64,000 bases of DNA from Escherichia coli (lineage in GTDB: Bacteria > Pseudomonadota > Gammaproteobacteria > Enterobacterales > Enterobacteriaceae): NCBI RefSeq assembly GCF_030013595.1, contig NZ_CP122768.1. One strand, given 5' to 3'. This document shows, piece by piece, positions 2,478 through 43,087 of this stretch. The translations under genes were made by a program, and so were the position numbers. The first letter of the stretch is position 1. Each line of letters begins with the position of its first letter. Under the pieces are notes generated by a model. It saw nothing but the letters and a program-made list of their open reading frames with translations. It was not told the origin of the DNA and made no database searches.

Positions 2478-3197
2478 TTATCGCCCCTGAATGGCTAAAT
2501 CACCCGGCAGATTTTTCTGCATCCGGTGCCAAATCTCGCCACTCTCATGCCCATAGCGACGCACTGTTTCGTATACCTGATCGTGTGCGCCTTCACTGCA
2601 CAACGCCGACAGTTTGTGGTAGAAGCCCAGCGCCAGGCTGCGCGCTTCCGGATTGGCGAAATAGTGACGACCAATGCGCGTATACAGCCCTTTCATCCCG
2701 TTAAGGATCAGACCGTAAATCGGGTTGCCGGAAGCAAACGCCAGACCGCGGAATATGTTGTAATCCAGCTCGGCAAAGGCATCGGCGTGATCGGCCACTT
2801 CATTAGCGGTAGCCAGCACTTCCTGCGCTTTATCGGGATGCTGACGAAACGCGGTGCGAATAAAAATAGTGGAAATATTGGTACGCACCGACAGCAAATT
2901 ATCAATAAGCTGCGGCACACTTTCGTGATCCAGTCGCGCCAGCGTTTCAAGGATATTTAAACCGGAGGTTTCCCAGAAATTATTCACCTTCGTCGGCTTG
3001 CCATGTTGAATGGTCAACCAGCCATCTCGTGCCAGGCGCTGTAACACTTCACGTAACGTAGTACGCGTCACGCCAATTAATTCTGAAAGTTCACGTTCTG
3101 CGGGCAAAATAGTCCCGGGAGGGAAGCGGTTATTCCAGATACTTTCAATAATGTACTCTTCCGCGAAACCCGCCGGGCTTTGCGCCTTAATGACCAT
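2478..3197 (-). CDS. fadR: Fatty acid metabolism regulator FadR (GntR family)
   Basis: ORF 2478..3221 trimmed to internal Met [61 protein letters not shown] (239 aa) matching FadR. Confidence 0.92.
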
Positions 3198-3418
3198 AGT
3201 GAGATTTCCATAACACAGCAAAACAAAGTTGGACTCATCATACCAGAGGGCTAACTACGCTGATAGCAGACAAAAAGAAGAAAAAAGGGATCAAGGCTTC
3301 ATTTTCCGCATCTCTTTACCCTTGACTATCAAGACTTGCCTCACTCCTGCCTGACCGTTAAGCTTTGCGTTTAAACATAAAAACATCATTGATTATTTGT
3401 AAGGTAAGGGAAACCATC

Positions 3419-14316: not shown

Positions 14317-14583
14317 ATGGCATTACTCGATTTCTTTCTCTCGCGGAAGAAAAACACGGCCAACATTGCAAAAGAACGGCTGCAGATTATTGTTGCTGAA
14401 CGCCGTCGCAGCGATGCAGAACCGCATTATCTGCCGCAGTTGCGTAAAGATATTCTTGAGGTCATTTGTAAATACGTACAAATTGATCCTGAGATGGTAA
14501 CCGTACAGCTTGAGCAAAAAGATGGCGATATTTCTATTCTTGAGCTGAACGTGACCTTGCCGGAAGCAGAAGAGCTGAAATAG
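14317..14583 (+). CDS. minE: Cell division topological specificity factor MinE
   Basis: [61 protein letters not shown]..., 88 aa. Confidence 0.95.
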
Positions 14584-14610
14584 GCCCGCTGTAAAAGCGC
14601 ATTTCTCTTC

Positions 14611-14641
14611 AAGGCAGAGTCATCTCTGCCTTGCGTTTTTC
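14611..14641 (+). terminator. minCDE operon intrinsic terminator
   Basis: AAGGCAGAGtcatcTCTGCCTTgcgttttt directly after minE stop. Confidence 0.65.
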
Positions 14642-14908
14642 ATCCCCCTCATCCACGTTTGATAAGAGCGGCGAGTATTCTTGCTGATGCTACTCATTGC
14701 TTCCCCCCTTTACACCTTAATGCCGTTCCCCCCACACAGAACAAATTGTTTATACTTGGCTGAGTAAATAACCTTATTGTTAGTATGGGTATACTGGGTG
14801 ATGATAACCCCGCAATTTCATTATTCATTGTTCTCCCATAGGATGAGGTTTCCCGCCGTAACTGGCGGGCTTTTTTTGCCGCAGAATTTTTACTTTTAAC
14901 ACCCTGTA

Positions 14909-14932
14909 AACGAAAACTGCGCCGAAGCGCAG
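14909..14932 (-). terminator. Intrinsic terminator of autotransporter gene
   Basis: Minus strand reads CTGCGCttcgGCGCAGttttcgttt just downstream of stop at 14948. Confidence 0.55.
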
Positions 14933-14947
14933 TTTAATCGTTGATGG

Positions 14948-17900
14948 TCAGAACGACCAGTTCGCACCAGCCACCGCGTTCCACGGGGATTCCACACCGG
15001 CACCATGGCTATACCCCACCCCGAGATGCCCGCTTAACGAACTGCTGAATGAGGCTTTAATACCTGCCTGATATATTCCACGTCTGCCCGACAAATCATT
15101 GACAAAATTACCGTCATTATTCACTTTCACCCGGTTATCATCGACAAATTCTTTGCGCACAGCCGCCTTCAGCCACGGCTCAACTTCCATGCCGTTCCCC
15201 AGACGCATGTTGTAACTCAGCGTTGCGCCCAGTTCACGATATATACTGCGAGTATCGACTGATTTCGATTCCATACCATTGGATAAATGATATTCGGGGT
15301 TATCAGCGGTGAACCCCGTTAACGATGCATACGGCGTCAGGTTCCAGTTACCATCGGTAAATCGCATCCCGGTTTCAATGTGACCGCCCAGCCCGTTGCT
15401 GCGATAACTGCCGTTGGCGGCTCCACCGCTGCTCATTTTACCGGCTACGTTACTTTCAAAGCGGTTCAGCTTCACGATACCGTCCAGATAGAAACCACTT
15501 TCATGTTCCCAGCTGGCATAGCCCCCCAGAGAATAACTGCCCACACTGCCATGTCCTCCACGATCAAAACCGATATGTGAATGGGAATAACCCATAAAAG
15601 CGCCCAGCGTCGCAATCCCCTCAGGAATATCATTACGGCTGTCGATCCCCACTGTCATTCCGGTCAGCGTCTGCTCAAACCCAGCCCCCGCATCGGTGGT
15701 GACATTATTACGGGTGTTATACGTCGCCCCCCAGACATTATTGTTGTGTGGACTCGCTTTCATTATGTTCAACCGCTCGCGAATACTGTTTAGCTCAGCA
15801 TCAAAGACCAACGGTAATGTTGCTGCCATATTGAGTACGGCAGCCGTAGAAGGCGTGATGCGTTTCTCCGGAACGGGTGTCGGCGTTGGCTCGGGAGTCG
15901 GGTCTGGATTTGGATTTGGATTTGGATTTGGGTTCGGATTTGGATTTGGATTTGGATTTGGATTTGGATTTGGGTTTGGATTTGGATTTGGATTTGGATT
16001 TGGGTTCGGATTTGGGTTCGGATTTGGGTTCGGATTTGGGTTCGGGTTCGGGTTCGGATTTGGATTTGGGTTGACATTATTAGTCAGGTTCCAGTTGCTG
16101 TTGCCGTCGCTTTTCAGGACATACTCATAGGTCCCAAGATCAACGAAACCGCCGGTATTGCCCAGCGAAAACGACGCATCCCCTCCCCCTGTTTTCACCA
16201 GCGTCATCGCATCGTCAGACTGAGGGCTGACGCCGGTATCCTGAACAAAGATTTTAAAATTACCAGTGGCATTGTTGTTGACGACCAGTTGATCGCCCCG
16301 GGAGCCTGCAACGTTGGTATGCAGGTAGAAATTACCGCTGCCGGAAAGTTCACTGGTGGTCAGCGTATTGTAGATATCGTTAGTTGTGGCAGGCGCTGAT
16401 AAATAAACATCACCGTCGTTGAGTAGCAAACTGTTTACTCTATATTCGCAGTTGCTGGTGCCTGCACAGGAATTATTGCTGTTAAGCCAGACACTGCCCC
16501 GGCTGGCAGCCGTCAGGTCGGCAAGCGTCGTATCGACACCATTTCCCAGAGTTAATGTCGCGCTATCGGTAATCCGGACCGCCCCTTCAAGTTTTACTGG
16601 CGTAACATTATCCCGTGGCGTCATTAACGACAGGCTTCCTGTCGCGCCACTGACCGATGCATTCGCCAGCGTACCTGCGTAGACGATTGCCGTCCCACCA
16701 GAGACCTGTAGATCTTCTGCCCGGGCCAGAGCCTGAAACTCATCTTTTGACCGCCCAAGGGTATATTGCCCACCAGAGTTAACCTTTGTGGCGGAGTCCT
16801 GACCCAGGTTTTGCATTGCACCACCCTTGTCAACCGTGGAGTCACGGGCTTCGGTACCTGCTAATACCAATAAATTACCGCCATTTTCCAGCAACATATT
16901 GGTCGCTAAATTGCTGGCAATGGAAAAGGTGCCGTACTGGTGCGTACCGCTGATTTCAATACCGTTAGCCGTGCTCGTCTGGAGAGCGGCACCGCTGTTC
17001 TGGACGATATCTGTCGCTTTGCCATTATCGTTGACTGTCAGCGTTCCGCCTTCATTGATCGTTGTTTTTATTGCCTCTCCGTTAGCTGAAACTGTTTGTA
17101 TTCCGCCGTCGTTAATTGTTGTCTCATTTGCCACACCCTCGACGATTTGTTCACCGCCAGTGAGCGTCGTGCCTGTCGCAGTGGCTTTTGTTTTGACGAT
17201 CTCCCGACCGCCCGCATTGACCTGTGTTTTGGCGGAAGTGGTGTCTGACTCCACGGTTAACACGCCGCCATTTGTCAGCAGGATATTGTTCGCCGCACCC
17301 TGCTCGATGCTGAACGCGACGCCATCAGCGCGTGTCCCTGTGACCCGCGTCGCCCTGGTGGTTGCAACCAACGCGCCCTGACTACTCTGCTGTATCCCCG
17401 TTGCGCTGCCTTTCTCCCGCACATCGAGTATGCCGCCATTGTTAAGTCTGGTGGTATATGCTACAGCCTCCTCGTGGACAATCAGCTTACCGCCAGCATC
17501 AACGATGGTATCTACCGCCGAGGTTTGAGCTACGACCGTCAGTTGGCCGGTATTTTCCAGCACAACATGCTCAGCCCTGCCTCCGGTAATAGTGAAGTGA
17601 GATGACCTCTGGTATCCATCAATATCAGTCCCCGCGCCCGTGTTGGCAACTAAAGCACTCCCCGTGTCCAGGTAAACCCCATGTGCGATACCGCCGGTAT
17701 CGACAATCAGCGTGCCTCCGGCACGAATATTGCTGCCAGTTGCCGTACCTCCTTTCTCAACAACCTGCTTGCTCCCGGAAGAGATATTTGTTGTGTCAGC
17801 TTTCCCGCCGCTCTTGATATTTTGCGTGCCACTGTTGATATTAGTTCCCGTAGCAATACCATGATTATAAATATTCTGTGTACCACCATTAATGATGGTA

Positions 17901-18367
17901 TTTGTCGCGTTTCCGGCAACATCCATAAGCCCGCCATTATCTATTCGGGTCGCATCAGCTTTAGCATTCGTTAAAACTGACATTGTTCCTTTATCGTTAA
18001 TTATCGTTCCTGTAGAAATCCCTCCCTCACTAATTGTCTGGCTGCCACCGTTAATGACTGTATTATTAGCCTGCCCCTGATAAGAGCCATGTCCAGACAC
18101 CTCTTGATGTCCACCAGTATCAATAAGACTTCCATTAGACACCCCGCCATATACCTCCTGCTTGCCGTGATTGATGATATGAGCATTATTTGTTGTACCT
18201 CGTTCATCTACTCTTTGGCTGCCGTCTACAGTCTCATCATTTACAACACCAATAACATTAGAAGTGAAAGCCGTCATCCCGGGAGGGGCATATATCATGG
18301 CAGCTATCAATAAGGAAAGTACTGAGCGGTGAAAATAATAGCGACTGGTTCTGTTCATAAATTTCAT
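14948..18367 (-). CDS. AIDA-I-like (type Va) autotransporter adhesin, apparently intact; sits where K-12 is recalled to carry an autotransporter pseudogene
   Basis: ORF 14948..18487; likely start MKFMNRTSRYYFHRSVLSLLIAAMIYAPPGMTA (extended signal peptide); repetitive passenger, (PN)n linker, C-terminal beta-barrel ending ...AGANWSF. Confidence 0.82.
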   Translation of the reverse strand: MKFMNRTSRYYFHRSVLSLLIAAMIYAPPGMTAFTSNVIGVVNDETVDGSQRVDERGTTNNAHIINHGKQEVYGGVSNGSLIDTGGHQEVSGHGSYQGQANNTVINGGSQTISEGGISTGTIINDKGTMSVLTNAKADATRIDNGGLMDVAGNATNTIINGGTQNIYNHGIATGTNINSGTQNIKSGGKADTTNISSGSKQVVEKGGTATGSNIRAGGTLIVDTGGIAHGVYLDTGSALVANTGAGTDIDGYQRSSHFTITGGRAEHVVLENTGQLTVVAQTSAVDTIVDAGGKLIVHEEAVAYTTRLNNGGILDVREKGSATGIQQSSQGALVATTRATRVTGTRADGVAFSIEQGAANNILLTNGGVLTVESDTTSAKTQVNAGGREIVKTKATATGTTLTGGEQIVEGVANETTINDGGIQTVSANGEAIKTTINEGGTLTVNDNGKATDIVQNSGAALQTSTANGIEISGTHQYGTFSIASNLATNMLLENGGNLLVLAGTEARDSTVDKGGAMQNLGQDSATKVNSGGQYTLGRSKDEFQALARAEDLQVSGGTAIVYAGTLANASVSGATGSLSLMTPRDNVTPVKLEGAVRITDSATLTLGNGVDTTLADLTAASRGSVWLNSNNSCAGTSNCEYRVNSLLLNDGDVYLSAPATTNDIYNTLTTSELSGSGNFYLHTNVAGSRGDQLVVNNNATGNFKIFVQDTGVSPQSDDAMTLVKTGGGDASFSLGNTGGFVDLGTYEYVLKSDGNSNWNLTNNVNPNPNPNPNPNPNPNPNPNPNPNPNPNPNPNPNPNPNPNPNPNPNPNPNPNPNPNPDPTPEPTPTPVPEKRITPSTAAVLNMAATLPLVFDAELNSIRERLNIMKASPHNNNVWGATYNTRNNVTTDAGAGFEQTLTGMTVGIDSRNDIPEGIATLGAFMGYSHSHIGFDRGGHGSVGSYSLGGYASWEHESGFYLDGIVKLNRFESNVAGKMSSGGAANGSYRSNGLGGHIETGMRFTDGNWNLTPYASLTGFTADNPEYHLSNGMESKSVDTRSIYRELGATLSYNMRLGNGMEVEPWLKAAVRKEFVDDNRVKVNNDGNFVNDLSGRRGIYQAGIKASFSSSLSGHLGVGYSHGAGVESPWNAVAGANWSF
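15905..16070. repeat. Tandem hexanucleotide repeat (TGGATT/TGGGTT, about 27 units) encoding in-frame (Pro-Asn)n linker
   Basis: Direct reading: ggatttggatttggatttgg... across about 166 bp; minus-strand translation NPNPNPNP...PDPTPEPTPTP. Confidence 0.9.
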
Positions 18368-18963
18368 CCTCTGAAAAATGAATACTGAGTAGCGTCTAAG
18401 TGACCTAAGCTCTGCTGCAACATCAGCCCGCAGGCACCAGACCAGGGGATTCATCCTGAAGAGACAGCGCAGGTGTATTGTGTTCACCGCTCATCAAAGA
18501 CATCATGATGAAATGATGATATCCCGCATAAGAAAGAGGCACTTTTTAAACGCAGTGCGCTGAAGTGTAGTTGGATAAAAAATCACTCTTTTCTGATAAT
18601 ACTGTCGTACGCTTATTTTTCGACAATGAGGCCGTCGGCAAAATAAAATGACTAATGTAATCGTTGCTGATGAATATCTTCTGCTCACATAAAAATCACA
18701 CAATAATATTGATAAATCAGATTATCTTACCTTTACAACATTGTATTAACAGTCAATGACACTTCTTGAATAAAAATATTGTCAATCAATGAGTTATTTC
18801 TCATTTGAGATTATTCTCATTCCCGTAAAAAACATAATTCCTATCATCACAGTCACGCTCATTTTGAATTATCTGAATAATAGCGAGCGTTCTTTAGTTA
18901 AGCAGATCTTAATTGAAGACGAAATTATTGTGTGTGCAACTTACTTAATACCGGACATCTAAG

Positions 18964-40128: not shown

Positions 40129-40673
40129 GCCTCCATCGCTTTATCAGGTTTGTCGGTGTTACTGCCCTGACCGTTCTCTCTGTGACGATGCCCGTTATAG
40201 GCAAGCCGCATCGCTGACATGGTGGTGCCGCCGGAGTCGCACAGGTCTTTCACTTGTCCGGTCACTTCCAGATCCATTTCAAAACGTGCTTCAGTTGCAT
40301 TGCGAAACGTGATCGTTTTCCCTGCACCGTCCACCACGATCCCCTCCCGGGTCAGCGTCACAGACTGCCCCTGATCGTCATAGACAGCCACCTCACCCGT
40401 CTGCAGCCCTTTCAGGCGGTAGCGCCGGTCCGACACCGTAACAACCACCGCATGAGAACGGTCGCCATCCGGAAACAACACCACCGCTTCCGCACCGCTG
40501 TTTGCCCTTGCGGTAAAACCGTAGGGTTCAAGATGTTCAACCCCGGCTTTGGGTTCACCGGCAATCAGGGACACATCCACGGTCTGACATTTCGTGGCGG
40601 CACTGATGCTTTTCACCACGGCCCGCCCAATCAGGCCGAGAAGTTGTCGCTGCATGGCTTCAATCGTCCTCAT
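40125..40673 (-). CDS. Baseplate assembly protein V-like (Mu gp45-like spike)
   Basis: 182-aa ORF; position. Confidence 0.6.
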   Translation of the reverse strand: MRTIEAMQRQLLGLIGRAVVKSISAATKCQTVDVSLIAGEPKAGVEHLEPYGFTARANSGAEAVVLFPDGDRSHAVVVTVSDRRYRLKGLQTGEVAVYDDQGQSVTLTREGIVVDGAGKTITFRNATEARFEMDLEVTGQVKDLCDSGGTTMSAMRLAYNGHRHRENGQGSNTDKPDKAMEA

Positions 40674-41752
40674 CAGAACGGGTCCTCCTGTACTCTGGCT
40701 TTTTTCTTTTTCCGCGCGCCGGGGGCTTCGGGTCCAGGCAGATAAGCATCAGGCGGGCCGACACGGATTTCCGTCAGGGTGCCGTTCTGGTCCTGAGTAA
40801 ACGTGACTTCCGAGACAAGCAGTTCGGTATTGTCGAAACCACAGACCGGATCGAAGACAATCACCCGCTGGTTGGGCTGCCACAGCGTACCGTTACCCTG
40901 TCGCCAGCCCTGCACCACATAGGTGGTTTCATCCGTCCGCGCCGCCCGTTGCCGGGCTTCAAAGTCAGCACGCGCAATACAGCCTGCCCCCGTAGCCTGC
41001 CCTGTCTGCCTGATATACATCGGACGGTAACGGGCAATAAATGCGTCTTCTGTGCGGGCCCGCAGCGCGGTGGTGGTGGCCTCACCGAAATCATCGTCGT
41101 TTCCGGCACGCTGCCCCGCCACCTGGTAAACAGAAAACCGCTCCCGGATACTCTTCTCCGTATCGCAGGAAAGGATGTTTTCCCCGAGTACCAGCGCGGT
41201 ATGTGCCCGCGTTGAGCCAATACCGCCAATCACCAGCCTGCCGTGCGAGTCGTCGTAAGCCAGCGCCTGCTGCTGACCGAGTATTTTGTTGATCACCTCG
41301 ATCACCGTTTCACCGTGATCAGGCTGGACATCAGGAATAACACCCGACGGCGCACCGCTGTTCACCACCTCAATGCCGAAAGGCGCAGCAAGCGCCTGCG
41401 CAATCTGTACCAGCGATCGTCCGTTAAACTGTGTCGGTTCGGCTGCACAGTCAATCAGGTCAGCGGTCAGACTACGTCCGGCAATACCGGTGCTGACCGA
41501 ACGGGCATCGTAACGAACGGGCGTCGCCTCCACCCAGCCAGTGATCACCAGCTCATCACCAATCAGCACTTCCACTTTTGAACCGTTTTTAATGCGCGGC
41601 TGAAGCGTGGTGATACCCTCATCTCCCGGCCACTGGCGGGTGATCTCCACACTGAAATCCCGCGCCAGTCGTTCAACACCGGCACCGATGCGCACCGATG
41701 TCCAGCCATTCCACTCCCGGCCATTTACCCGTAGCGTGACGTTATCGTTCAT
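40673..41752 (-). CDS. Baseplate hub / tail protein (Mu gp44-like)
   Basis: 359-aa ORF; position following DNA circulation gene. Confidence 0.6.
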   Translation of the reverse strand: MNDNVTLRVNGREWNGWTSVRIGAGVERLARDFSVEITRQWPGDEGITTLQPRIKNGSKVEVLIGDELVITGWVEATPVRYDARSVSTGIAGRSLTADLIDCAAEPTQFNGRSLVQIAQALAAPFGIEVVNSGAPSGVIPDVQPDHGETVIEVINKILGQQQALAYDDSHGRLVIGGIGSTRAHTALVLGENILSCDTEKSIRERFSVYQVAGQRAGNDDDFGEATTTALRARTEDAFIARYRPMYIRQTGQATGAGCIARADFEARQRAARTDETTYVVQGWRQGNGTLWQPNQRVIVFDPVCGFDNTELLVSEVTFTQDQNGTLTEIRVGPPDAYLPGPEAPGARKKKKARVQEDPF

Positions 41753-43077
41753 TGCACTGGCACCTTCAGAGGGATCACCGGCACAAAGCCGGGATGCGTA
41801 ATGGCATTACGCCGGATAATGTCCCCGTCACGCGCCGCGTTATCAAACCAGGTCGCCGCCAGCACCAGCGCGGGTAAAACCTCATCCGGCGTGCGCTGAA
41901 TGATCCGTGCAGACTGTTCAAGGCGCGTGTTGATATCCGCATTCAGATCTGCTTTCACCCGGCGCAGCGCCAGAAACAGCGCATCACTGGTTGTACGGGA
42001 CAACTCCTTATCAATTGCCGTATTCAGTGTGTCGCGAATGTCAGTCAGTTCTTCCCACGTTGGCAGGTCAACCGTGCTTTTCACCGCCGGTGCATTGTTC
42101 AGTGCCGGATGCGTGACGGAAGGCCAGCCAGTGCTCTGCGCGGGTGTTGTTGCCTGCCCCACTGCGGCATTCTGCATCACCGCGGAAGTTGTTGGCGCAG
42201 GCAATCGGGTGACGGCATACGCCGCTTCGCTGATTGCGGTCGTACGAAGGATGCTGGCAACCACGTTACGCTGCTGTGTCGCCGTGGCGGTGGTTTTACT
42301 GTCCGTTTTCCAGACGCCGCGCGGTTGCAGATCGCTGCCAAGGCTGACACCGGAAAGCGTTTTGATCATGGTGACCAGGTCGCTGGCGTTACCATAAAGG
42401 CGTTTCCCGGTACGCCACATTTTCTGCACCTGCTCAACGAAATTTTTGCCTGACGATGGTGGCGGCAGAAGTACCGAGATATCCCCCTGCAACAGCCTGG
42501 CAGCATCCGATACGGCAGAATCCACCACTTTCATCGCATCAGAAACATACCCAAGCATTGTGCTGGCATTACCGACGACGTCGTTCTGCACAAAATCCGC
42601 CACGCCATCGATACTGAAACCGCTGAAGCTGTCACTGATGCAGTTATCCAGTGCAGAACAGGATGACATCAGCGTCTGCGCCGTCGCCGCACCTGATGTG
42701 GGGTAAGAGAGTTCTCCTGCTTCGACAAACTTCAGGTCAAAGCGGACAATACGCCCTTCACTTTTCGATGTGCTGACCCGAACTTCCCCGTCAACACAGA
42801 CTTTCAGCTCACCGTATGTCGGATGGACAAGCGTGCCGGGACCGGGTTTATTCAGCGCGTCAATCAGGCGATCGCGCTGGTCAAAGCAGTCATCTCCCAC
42901 CACATAAGCCGTGATGGACGGGCGAAAAGTGATTTTCCCCAGGTCTTCGGTATAGGGTTTGTCGCGGTTCGGGTATTCATGTGTTTCCACACGGCGACCG
43001 GTTCCCGCACTTTCTTCTTCAACCTTAAACGGCACACCTCGAAATGACGCATCCTGAAGCCTGTCTTTCCACGTCAT
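41749..43077 (-). CDS. DNA circulation protein (Mu gp43-like)
   Basis: ATG at 43077 with SD GGAG 5 nt upstream; MTWKDRLQDASFRGVPFKVEEESAGTGRRVETHEYPNRDKPYTEDLG... (conserved N-terminal motif of this family). Confidence 0.7.
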   Translation of the reverse strand: MTWKDRLQDASFRGVPFKVEEESAGTGRRVETHEYPNRDKPYTEDLGKITFRPSITAYVVGDDCFDQRDRLIDALNKPGPGTLVHPTYGELKVCVDGEVRVSTSKSEGRIVRFDLKFVEAGELSYPTSGAATAQTLMSSCSALDNCISDSFSGFSIDGVADFVQNDVVGNASTMLGYVSDAMKVVDSAVSDAARLLQGDISVLLPPPSSGKNFVEQVQKMWRTGKRLYGNASDLVTMIKTLSGVSLGSDLQPRGVWKTDSKTTATATQQRNVVASILRTTAISEAAYAVTRLPAPTTSAVMQNAAVGQATTPAQSTGWPSVTHPALNNAPAVKSTVDLPTWEELTDIRDTLNTAIDKELSRTTSDALFLALRRVKADLNADINTRLEQSARIIQRTPDEVLPALVLAATWFDNAARDGDIIRRNAITHPGFVPVIPLKVPVQ

Positions 43078-43087
43078 ATACACTCCG

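Follow-up and report, generated by a model that had tools for sequence, protein, structure and literature searches.

An orphan terminator downstream of minE in Escherichia coli as the probable 3′ end of an Escherichia-restricted, Hfq-binding small RNA candidate

The 364 bp that separate minE from a convergent autotransporter gene contain three hairpin terminators in the E. coli DNA analysed here, a 64,000-nucleotide stretch of contig NZ_CP122768.1 (assembly GCF_030013595.1; hereafter, the window). The middle hairpin lies on the minE strand, 230 nt past the minE terminator, and is probably the Rho-independent terminator of a small RNA (sRNA) candidate that binds Hfq and is restricted to Escherichia. 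The locus combines a terminator under selective conservation, the lack of a conserved ORF and, in published data from strain K-12, an association with Hfq that has the chimera geometry of an sRNA. The proposed RNA would be ~75–80 nt long (~77 nt for ~14801–14877, plus strand), with a predicted 5′ end at about 14801–14804, and would end at the orphan terminator. The initial annotation, made from the same DNA, had left open whether this terminator belonged to a small protein gene or to an sRNA. It is the latter reading that gains support, from the conserved block, from a 1-nt deletion tolerated in ST131 and from the Hfq RIL-seq behaviour of the K-12 locus. The features discussed are listed in Table 1.

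Table 1. Features between minE and the autotransporter gene, in window coordinates.
Feature	Position	Strand	Remarks
minE (minCDE operon)	14317–14583	+	Window gene, E. coli
minE intrinsic terminator	14610–14640	+	Stem 14610–14633, 10 bp, 4-nt loop; T5 14636–14640; dG −16.5 kcal/mol
Variable C-rich, G-poor spacer, rut-like	14642–14759	+	GC skew to −0.56 at 14680–14759
Conserved upstream block CTGAGTAAATAACCTTAT	14760–14777	+	Near-invariant across the eight aligned alleles (seven E. coli, one E. albertii); surroundings diverge
TATACT, candidate −10-like hexamer	14790–14795	+	No −35 match; varies between alleles
Proposed sRNA body	14801–14851	+	A/U-rich; CUCCC motif; UUU just 5′ of terminator; 5′ end predicted
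Intrinsic terminator of the proposed sRNA	14852–14877	+	CCCGCC-GUAACU-GGCGGG, C, U7
Autotransporter terminator hairpin	14914–14935	−	Minus-strand T-run; dG −13.2 kcal/mol; kept in E. albertii
Autotransporter gene, AIDA-type, convergent	14948–18487	−	1179 residues

The orphan hairpin has the anatomy of an intrinsic terminator, that is, a GC-rich hairpin with an immediate U-tract on the transcribed strand. Its stem (14852–14869) comprises 6 bp, namely five G-C or C-G pairs plus one G-C pair in the middle, closes a 6-nt loop (dG −11.8 kcal/mol) and is followed by C14870 and by seven T residues at 14871–14877, the only T7 run of the intergenic region. It is present in both the minimum-energy and the centroid folds and, as E. 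albertii and ~5300 E. coli genomes have retained it, is more than a chance occurrence. The initial annotation had described a strong plus-strand terminator, distinct from that of minE and without an annotated gene, and on all three points we agree: the minE terminator has its own 10-bp stem and T5 run, and no feature is annotated at the hairpin in any of the RefSeq records sampled. Only its end had been placed one base too far, at 14878. The hairpin is one-directional, as its minus-strand side continues as AAACCTCATCC, without a T-run. For this reason, and because the autotransporter gene ends in a terminator of its own, a bidirectional terminator serving that gene was ruled out. An Hfq-binding module is reportedly made of a terminator with a long 3′ U-tail (at least 6–7 nt) and a preceding U-rich stretch (Otaka 2011; Ishikawa 2012); here, C and U7 come right after the 6-bp GC-rich stem, and UUU directly precedes it.

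Selective conservation was assessed in an alignment of seven E. coli alleles and E. albertii, counting differences against the window. The core, 14797–14878, differs from K-12 at 1 of 82 positions, against 38 of 290 in the rest of the intergenic region (Fisher p=8e-4). The corresponding counts are 2 of 82 and 41 of 290 for O157, and 8 of 82 against 150 of 302 for E. albertii (Fisher p=5e-12). A run of 57 consecutive bases (14812–14868) is identical between the window and E. albertii. By segment, identity with E. albertii is 42% in the spacer that follows the minE terminator, 89% in the body, 87% in the hairpin and U-tract and 31% in the following spacer. Among the seven E. coli alleles, 3 of the 55 columns at 14797–14851 vary, and the mean pairwise identity of the post-minE-terminator spacer is 87%; no other stretch between the two genes varies as much from allele to allele, indels included. 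The initial annotation had suggested examining the conservation of the short ORF and of the hairpin: the hairpin and the body upstream of it are strongly conserved, while the ORF is not. No covariation was detected in the hairpin (0 compensatory pairs), the aligned alleles being too similar. Its stem is slightly weakened, and not repaired, in two alleles, by a C-A mismatch in ABU 83972 and by the loss of one pair in E. albertii.

The same pattern holds at the population level. The intergenic region was found in 5411 out of 5426 complete E. coli genomes, in one copy each, and an 84-nt core in 5315 genomes (~98% of the complete genomes). This core is ≥95% identical to the window in 5311 out of 5316 matching E. 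coli records, and the whole intergenic region is 90–95% identical to it in ~4200 out of 5413 records. The element is also retained where the adjoining autotransporter gene has been cut to a 344-bp 3′ remnant (ycgI), as in K-12, ST131, ABU 83972 and others; EPEC has such a remnant too. It had no match in phage sequences and, with a single copy per genome, an origin as a repeat or mobile-element remnant was ruled out. The matches labelled as plasmid are non-mobilizable records, three of them of 4.8–4.9 Mb, and are probably chromosomal sequence filed as plasmid.

Beyond E. coli, we searched 80–82 Enterobacteriaceae minE loci, fetched via MinE, with blastn and nhmmer. Only E. coli and E. albertii carried the element, which in either species sits between minE and the autotransporter gene. 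These searches detected no copy near minE in Salmonella, Citrobacter, Klebsiella, Enterobacter or the other genera sampled, nor in three Escherichia genomes (E. whittamii, Escherichia sp. E1V33 and SCPM-O-B-8794, a divergent record under the label E. coli). That these three lack what E. coli and E. albertii share implies either loss or transfer. In the latter genomes (loci L004, L006 and L008, positions 2765–3240), minE is followed by an unrelated AT-rich region and then by a gene apparently encoding a signal peptide. A comparison with Rfam 15 returned no match overlapping 14760–14878, even at E-values up to 10; the nearest, OmrA-B at 14880–14941, is at chance level (17.6 bits, with a gathering score of 40).

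Evidence that this locus yields an Hfq-associated RNA comes from the re-analysis by Bar et al. 2021 of the RIL-seq data of Melamed 2016 (PMC8175672, Table S1), obtained in K-12 and not in the window strain. There, an RNA named 'minE.ycgI.IGR' accounts for 137 chimeric fragments with 5 unique partners in stationary phase, 12 fragments in exponential phase and none under iron limitation. Its Second-In-Chimera score is 0.8 which, with five partners, means that it is second in every chimera, the side on which sRNAs are found; its partners are target-like and its U-tract length is 7. The resulting sRNA score is 0.276 (cut-off 0.1), with RybB at 0.29 and Spf at 0.23 in the same sheet (PMC8175672). 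The K-12 intergenic region has a single T7 run, the one after the hairpin, and no A7 run; together with the U-tract length of 7, this places the Hfq-bound fragments on the minE strand and within 50 nt of the hairpin. 'minE.ycgI.IGR' is thus assigned to the orphan hairpin from its U-tract length and from the way in which such RNAs are named. The entry has the status 'Predicted here' and was not among the candidates tested by northern blot, a test that confirmed 9 out of 11 in that study (PMC8175672). We found no discussion of it in any searchable main text.

A second RIL-seq record that bears the name of minE was considered and rejected as the candidate. In EPEC, a chimera between 'minE.ymgJ.IGR' and ArcZ is supported by 22 fragments (odds ratio ~2700), but the RNA involved, at NC_011601 1330963–1330975 (minus strand), corresponds to window positions ~15147–15159 (plus strand), on the strand opposite the 3′ end of the autotransporter remnant. 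This makes it a different RNA, ~270 nt downstream of the orphan terminator. Since it lies on the minE strand, it indicates that some plus-strand transcription occurs beyond the hairpin.

If the RNA acts as these data suggest, Hfq would be bound through the U7 tail, the expected proximal-face site, and through the U-rich stretch before the hairpin. Base pairing would most likely involve the conserved, unstructured body (~14808–14851), which contains UUCAUUGUUCUCCCAUAGGAUGAGG with the CUCCC motif. The fold of the body is weak (z=−0.78), and the RNA is predicted to be mostly unpaired apart from the terminator, so that the 57-nt run identical in E. albertii would offer an accessible seed. The RNA would act in trans on mRNAs, mainly in stationary phase. 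A duplex-energy scan for targets, which covered the 64-kb window, returned only spurious sites, the best being antisense to umuC and to a phage-tail-like gene.

In these respects the candidate resembles the Hfq-dependent, intergenic, trans-acting sRNAs of the RybB, MicA, CyaR and Spf type. It shares with them a length of about 75–90 nt (as predicted for the candidate), a GC-rich hairpin with at least seven U residues, a U-rich stretch before it and a conserved unstructured body, as well as the second position in RIL-seq chimeras with target-like RNAs and a score that falls between those of RybB and Spf. It differs from them in its narrower range (E. coli and E. albertii only, among 82 minE loci), in its 137 chimeras, compared to thousands for the classical sRNAs, and in being unnamed and without an Rfam family, known from a RIL-seq score and from sequence. 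A closer comparison is with AllZ, FadZ, KilS, XylZ, ZbiJ and BhsB, which come from the same data set and scoring (scores of 0.10–0.51, compared to 0.276) and share the stationary-phase bias and U-tracts of 7–8 (PMC8175672). These six have been confirmed by northern blot as Hfq-dependent, whereas the candidate is only listed. Moreover, sRNAs of the AllZ type mostly share the terminator of their host gene, while the minE gene upstream of the candidate has its own, efficient terminator 230 nt away, with a Rho region in between.

This Rho region was identified from published MG1655 data. The dominant Term-seq 3′ end is that of the minE terminator, at MG1655 1224224/5 within the matching T-run (PMC7815308; Adams 2021). 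The same study reports a Rho-termination signal, among its stronger ones, at minus-strand position 1224064 (Rho score 24.9, p=3.6e-67), with upstream/downstream read counts of 230/18 in untreated cells and 293/571 with bicyclomycin, the downstream interval being 800 nt (PMC7815308). This position maps to window 14791, the second base of TATACT, just 3′ of the rut-like spacer, which is rich in C and poor in G (GC skew −0.56). The excess of downstream over upstream reads with bicyclomycin may reflect transcription that starts at or beyond 1224064 under Rho inhibition. The curated Term-seq list has no 3′ end at the hairpin itself (expected at MG1655 1223978–1223984) in LB at OD 0.4, LB at OD 2.0 or M63 glucose (PMC7815308). 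The initial annotation had proposed looking for transcript 3′ ends at this site alongside conservation of the hairpin: in this one study, under its three conditions, none is found there, whereas the hairpin is conserved.

Provided that the sRNA is real, we lean towards its transcription from a promoter of its own, formed by TATACT and the conserved block at about −42 to −25, rather than its release by cleavage of minCDE read-through. Three considerations favour this origin: a strong intrinsic terminator and a site of Rho termination lie between minE and the element; conservation is lowest in the spacer; and a conserved block is present at ~−42 to −25 from the start predicted by TATACT, with expression biased towards stationary phase. 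The block (14760–14777) would occupy that interval if transcription started near 14802 and may be a promoter or regulator-binding region or else part of a precursor. The TATACT element noted in the initial annotation is present, at 14790–14795 and not at 14785–14790. It reads TATGCT, TATCCT or TATCCA in other alleles and CATTCT in E. albertii. No TTGACA-like −35 element was found at 16–18 bp from it, and a sigma-70 promoter scan reported nothing in the stretch of the element. Inspection by eye for sigma-28, sigma-E, PhoP-box and GAD-box sequences turned up partial matches only, which are not relied on. One of them is a PhoP-box-like direct repeat at 14747–14763, TGTTTA-N5-GGCTGA in the window and TGTTTA-N5-GGTTGA in K-12 (locus L001, 4171–4187), which lies upstream of the conserved block and is poorly conserved in E. 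albertii. An FlhDC SELEX peak was ruled out as a relevant regulator site, as it lies inside minE.

A 3′UTR-type origin, in which the same Hfq-binding RNA is cut by RNase E from minCDE read-through, differs from an own promoter in biogenesis only, and we consider it rather unlikely. The element does lie downstream of an expressed operon on the same strand, there is no recognisable −35 and TATACT varies between alleles, and many RIL-seq 'IGR' candidates have proved to be 3′UTR-derived, according to the legend of Table S1 (PMC8175672). Moreover, when the whole of 14642–14878 is folded, CCCUCAUCC (14646–14654), just past the minE terminator, pairs with GGAUGAGG (14842–14849), with z=−2.85; this modelled pairing could be relevant if the RNA came from a read-through precursor. 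However, CCCUCAUCC is not conserved in E. albertii, and the spacer that such a precursor would include is less conserved than any other part of the region and unalignable with that species, whereas the conserved block falls where the −35 or activator region of a promoter would be expected. The dominant 3′ end at the minE terminator and the strong Rho region before the element also stand against it. Chimeras are ~10 times more numerous in stationary than in exponential phase, which would be unexpected for a by-product of a cell-division operon; this bias and the Rho region between minE and the element argue against simple minCDE read-through.

A more detailed version of the own-promoter reading can be put forward tentatively: an Escherichia sRNA that is Hfq-dependent, induced in stationary phase from an atypical promoter, maintained by strong purifying selection since the split of E. 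coli and E. albertii while the adhesin gene next to it decayed, and endowed with a small regulon. K-12 would then have an sRNA of the core genome, so far without a name, beside an operon that is among its most studied. Within it, a promoter lacking a −35 element may depend on an activator or on sigma-S, and the position between minCDE and the autotransporter gene possibly points to a regulon of envelope, adhesin or cell-division functions.

It is improbable that the hairpin is a fail-safe or insulating terminator without any RNA function. Under this explanation, transcripts that escape the minE terminator would be stopped by Rho at the C-rich spacer and then by the hairpin, shielding the convergent autotransporter gene from antisense minCDE transcription, and the Hfq-bound RNA would be a stable 3′ remnant. 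The arrangement is that of tandem terminators, with a second same-strand terminator 230 nt after that of minE, a C-rich, rut-like spacer and the Rho signal at window 14791. Neither an independent start nor a convincing promoter was found, and the lack of a Term-seq 3′ end at the hairpin fits with little transcription reaching it. Yet a fail-safe terminator needs only a hairpin and a T-run, whereas in this locus the 55 unstructured bases upstream of the hairpin are the best conserved, and they are conserved even where the autotransporter gene is reduced to its 344-bp remnant. In addition, it leaves unexplained why an RNA captured paired on Hfq is always second in its chimeras, with five target-like partners and a stationary-phase bias.

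The remaining possibility, a small-protein gene, is close to refuted, since the ORFs have no conserved start, frame or length and their products are absent from the protein collection searched. It would involve either of two reading frames that are open in the window. The first is the 32-codon ORF of the initial annotation (MITPQF..., here ORF32), which exists, with its ATG at 14801 and not near 14788; a transcription start exactly at A14801 would place it at the first base of the transcript, where it might be translated leaderless from the TATACT promoter. Its stop codon (14897–14899) lies 20 nt past the T-run, so that an RNA ending at the terminator would lack a stop codon. Because this stop is beyond the terminator and outside the conserved block, the length of ORF32 varies between alleles (14, 25, 32, 45 or 47 codons), and a 1-nt deletion shifts its frame in ST131. 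The second, ORF18, extends from the ATG at 14785 to the TAG at 14841 (MGILGDDNPAISLFIVLP). Six of the eight alleles, E. albertii included, keep this frame open behind an ATG or GTG, but O157 has GTT at the start position, ST131 carries a frameshift and three of its five substitutions relative to E. albertii alter the amino acid. No purine-rich Shine-Dalgarno sequence was found upstream of either ATG, and the alignment of the eight alleles showed no third-position pattern in either frame. Six ORF products were tested, none of which is present in a collection of ~15 billion predicted proteins; a K-12 small-protein tagging survey has nothing in the minE intergenic region, for which no small protein was found reported in the literature. 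Thus, neither a conserved ORF nor a ribosome-binding site with a stop codon inside the transcript was found. The 1-nt deletion in ST131, the start loss in O157 and the conservation at the nucleotide level indicate that the constraint is on nucleotides and not on codons. The dual-function RNAs SgrS/SgrT and AzuCR likewise combine a short transcript (here, a proposed one) with short ORFs; those of the candidate differ in that their length, frame and start are not conserved and that one has no stop inside the terminated transcript.

If confirmed, the candidate would add one more Hfq-dependent sRNA to the core genome of E. coli, next to minCDE, unannotated in RefSeq and not in Rfam. What was already known amounts to one computational flag in a line of a supplementary table, for an RNA that is unnamed and unannotated. 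The present analysis adds its exact anatomy and selective conservation, shows that it is confined to E. coli and E. albertii, excludes a small protein and connects the element with the Rho and Term-seq data. Elements of this kind are ordinary, and no new kind of biology is opened by it. With its narrow range, and having survived next to an autotransporter gene in decay, it is well suited to studies of the origin and fixation of young sRNAs. In practice, 14797–14878 merits annotation as a candidate non-coding RNA, and edits made 'downstream of minE' should not be presumed neutral.

Some further observations were made on the surroundings of the element. In the window, the autotransporter gene encodes an apparently intact adhesin (AIDA/pertactin-type), labelled 'YpjA/EhaD-like' in relatives, with a linker repeat at 15905–16069 in which a 6-nt unit occurs 27.5 times (a Pro-Asn repeat); the same gene is annotated as frameshifted in one near-identical strain. 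Farther away, two minus-strand ORFs of 359 and 444 residues (40673–43083) are putative Mu-type phage tail/baseplate genes, and the window may, thus, include a prophage. For UTI89, a screen for fragments that induce filamentation showed enrichment of the whole ycgI-to-minC region (C1357–C1361), for which, according to its authors, linkage to minC may be the simple reason (PMC6206680). Finally, ~100 complete E. coli genomes carry a deletion from just past the minE terminator to ymgI that removes the core together with the autotransporter remnant and ymgJ, as seen in E. coli O150:H6 FEX669 (locus L088, 1501–1650). These strains are natural knock-outs of the sRNA candidate that can be compared with other strains.
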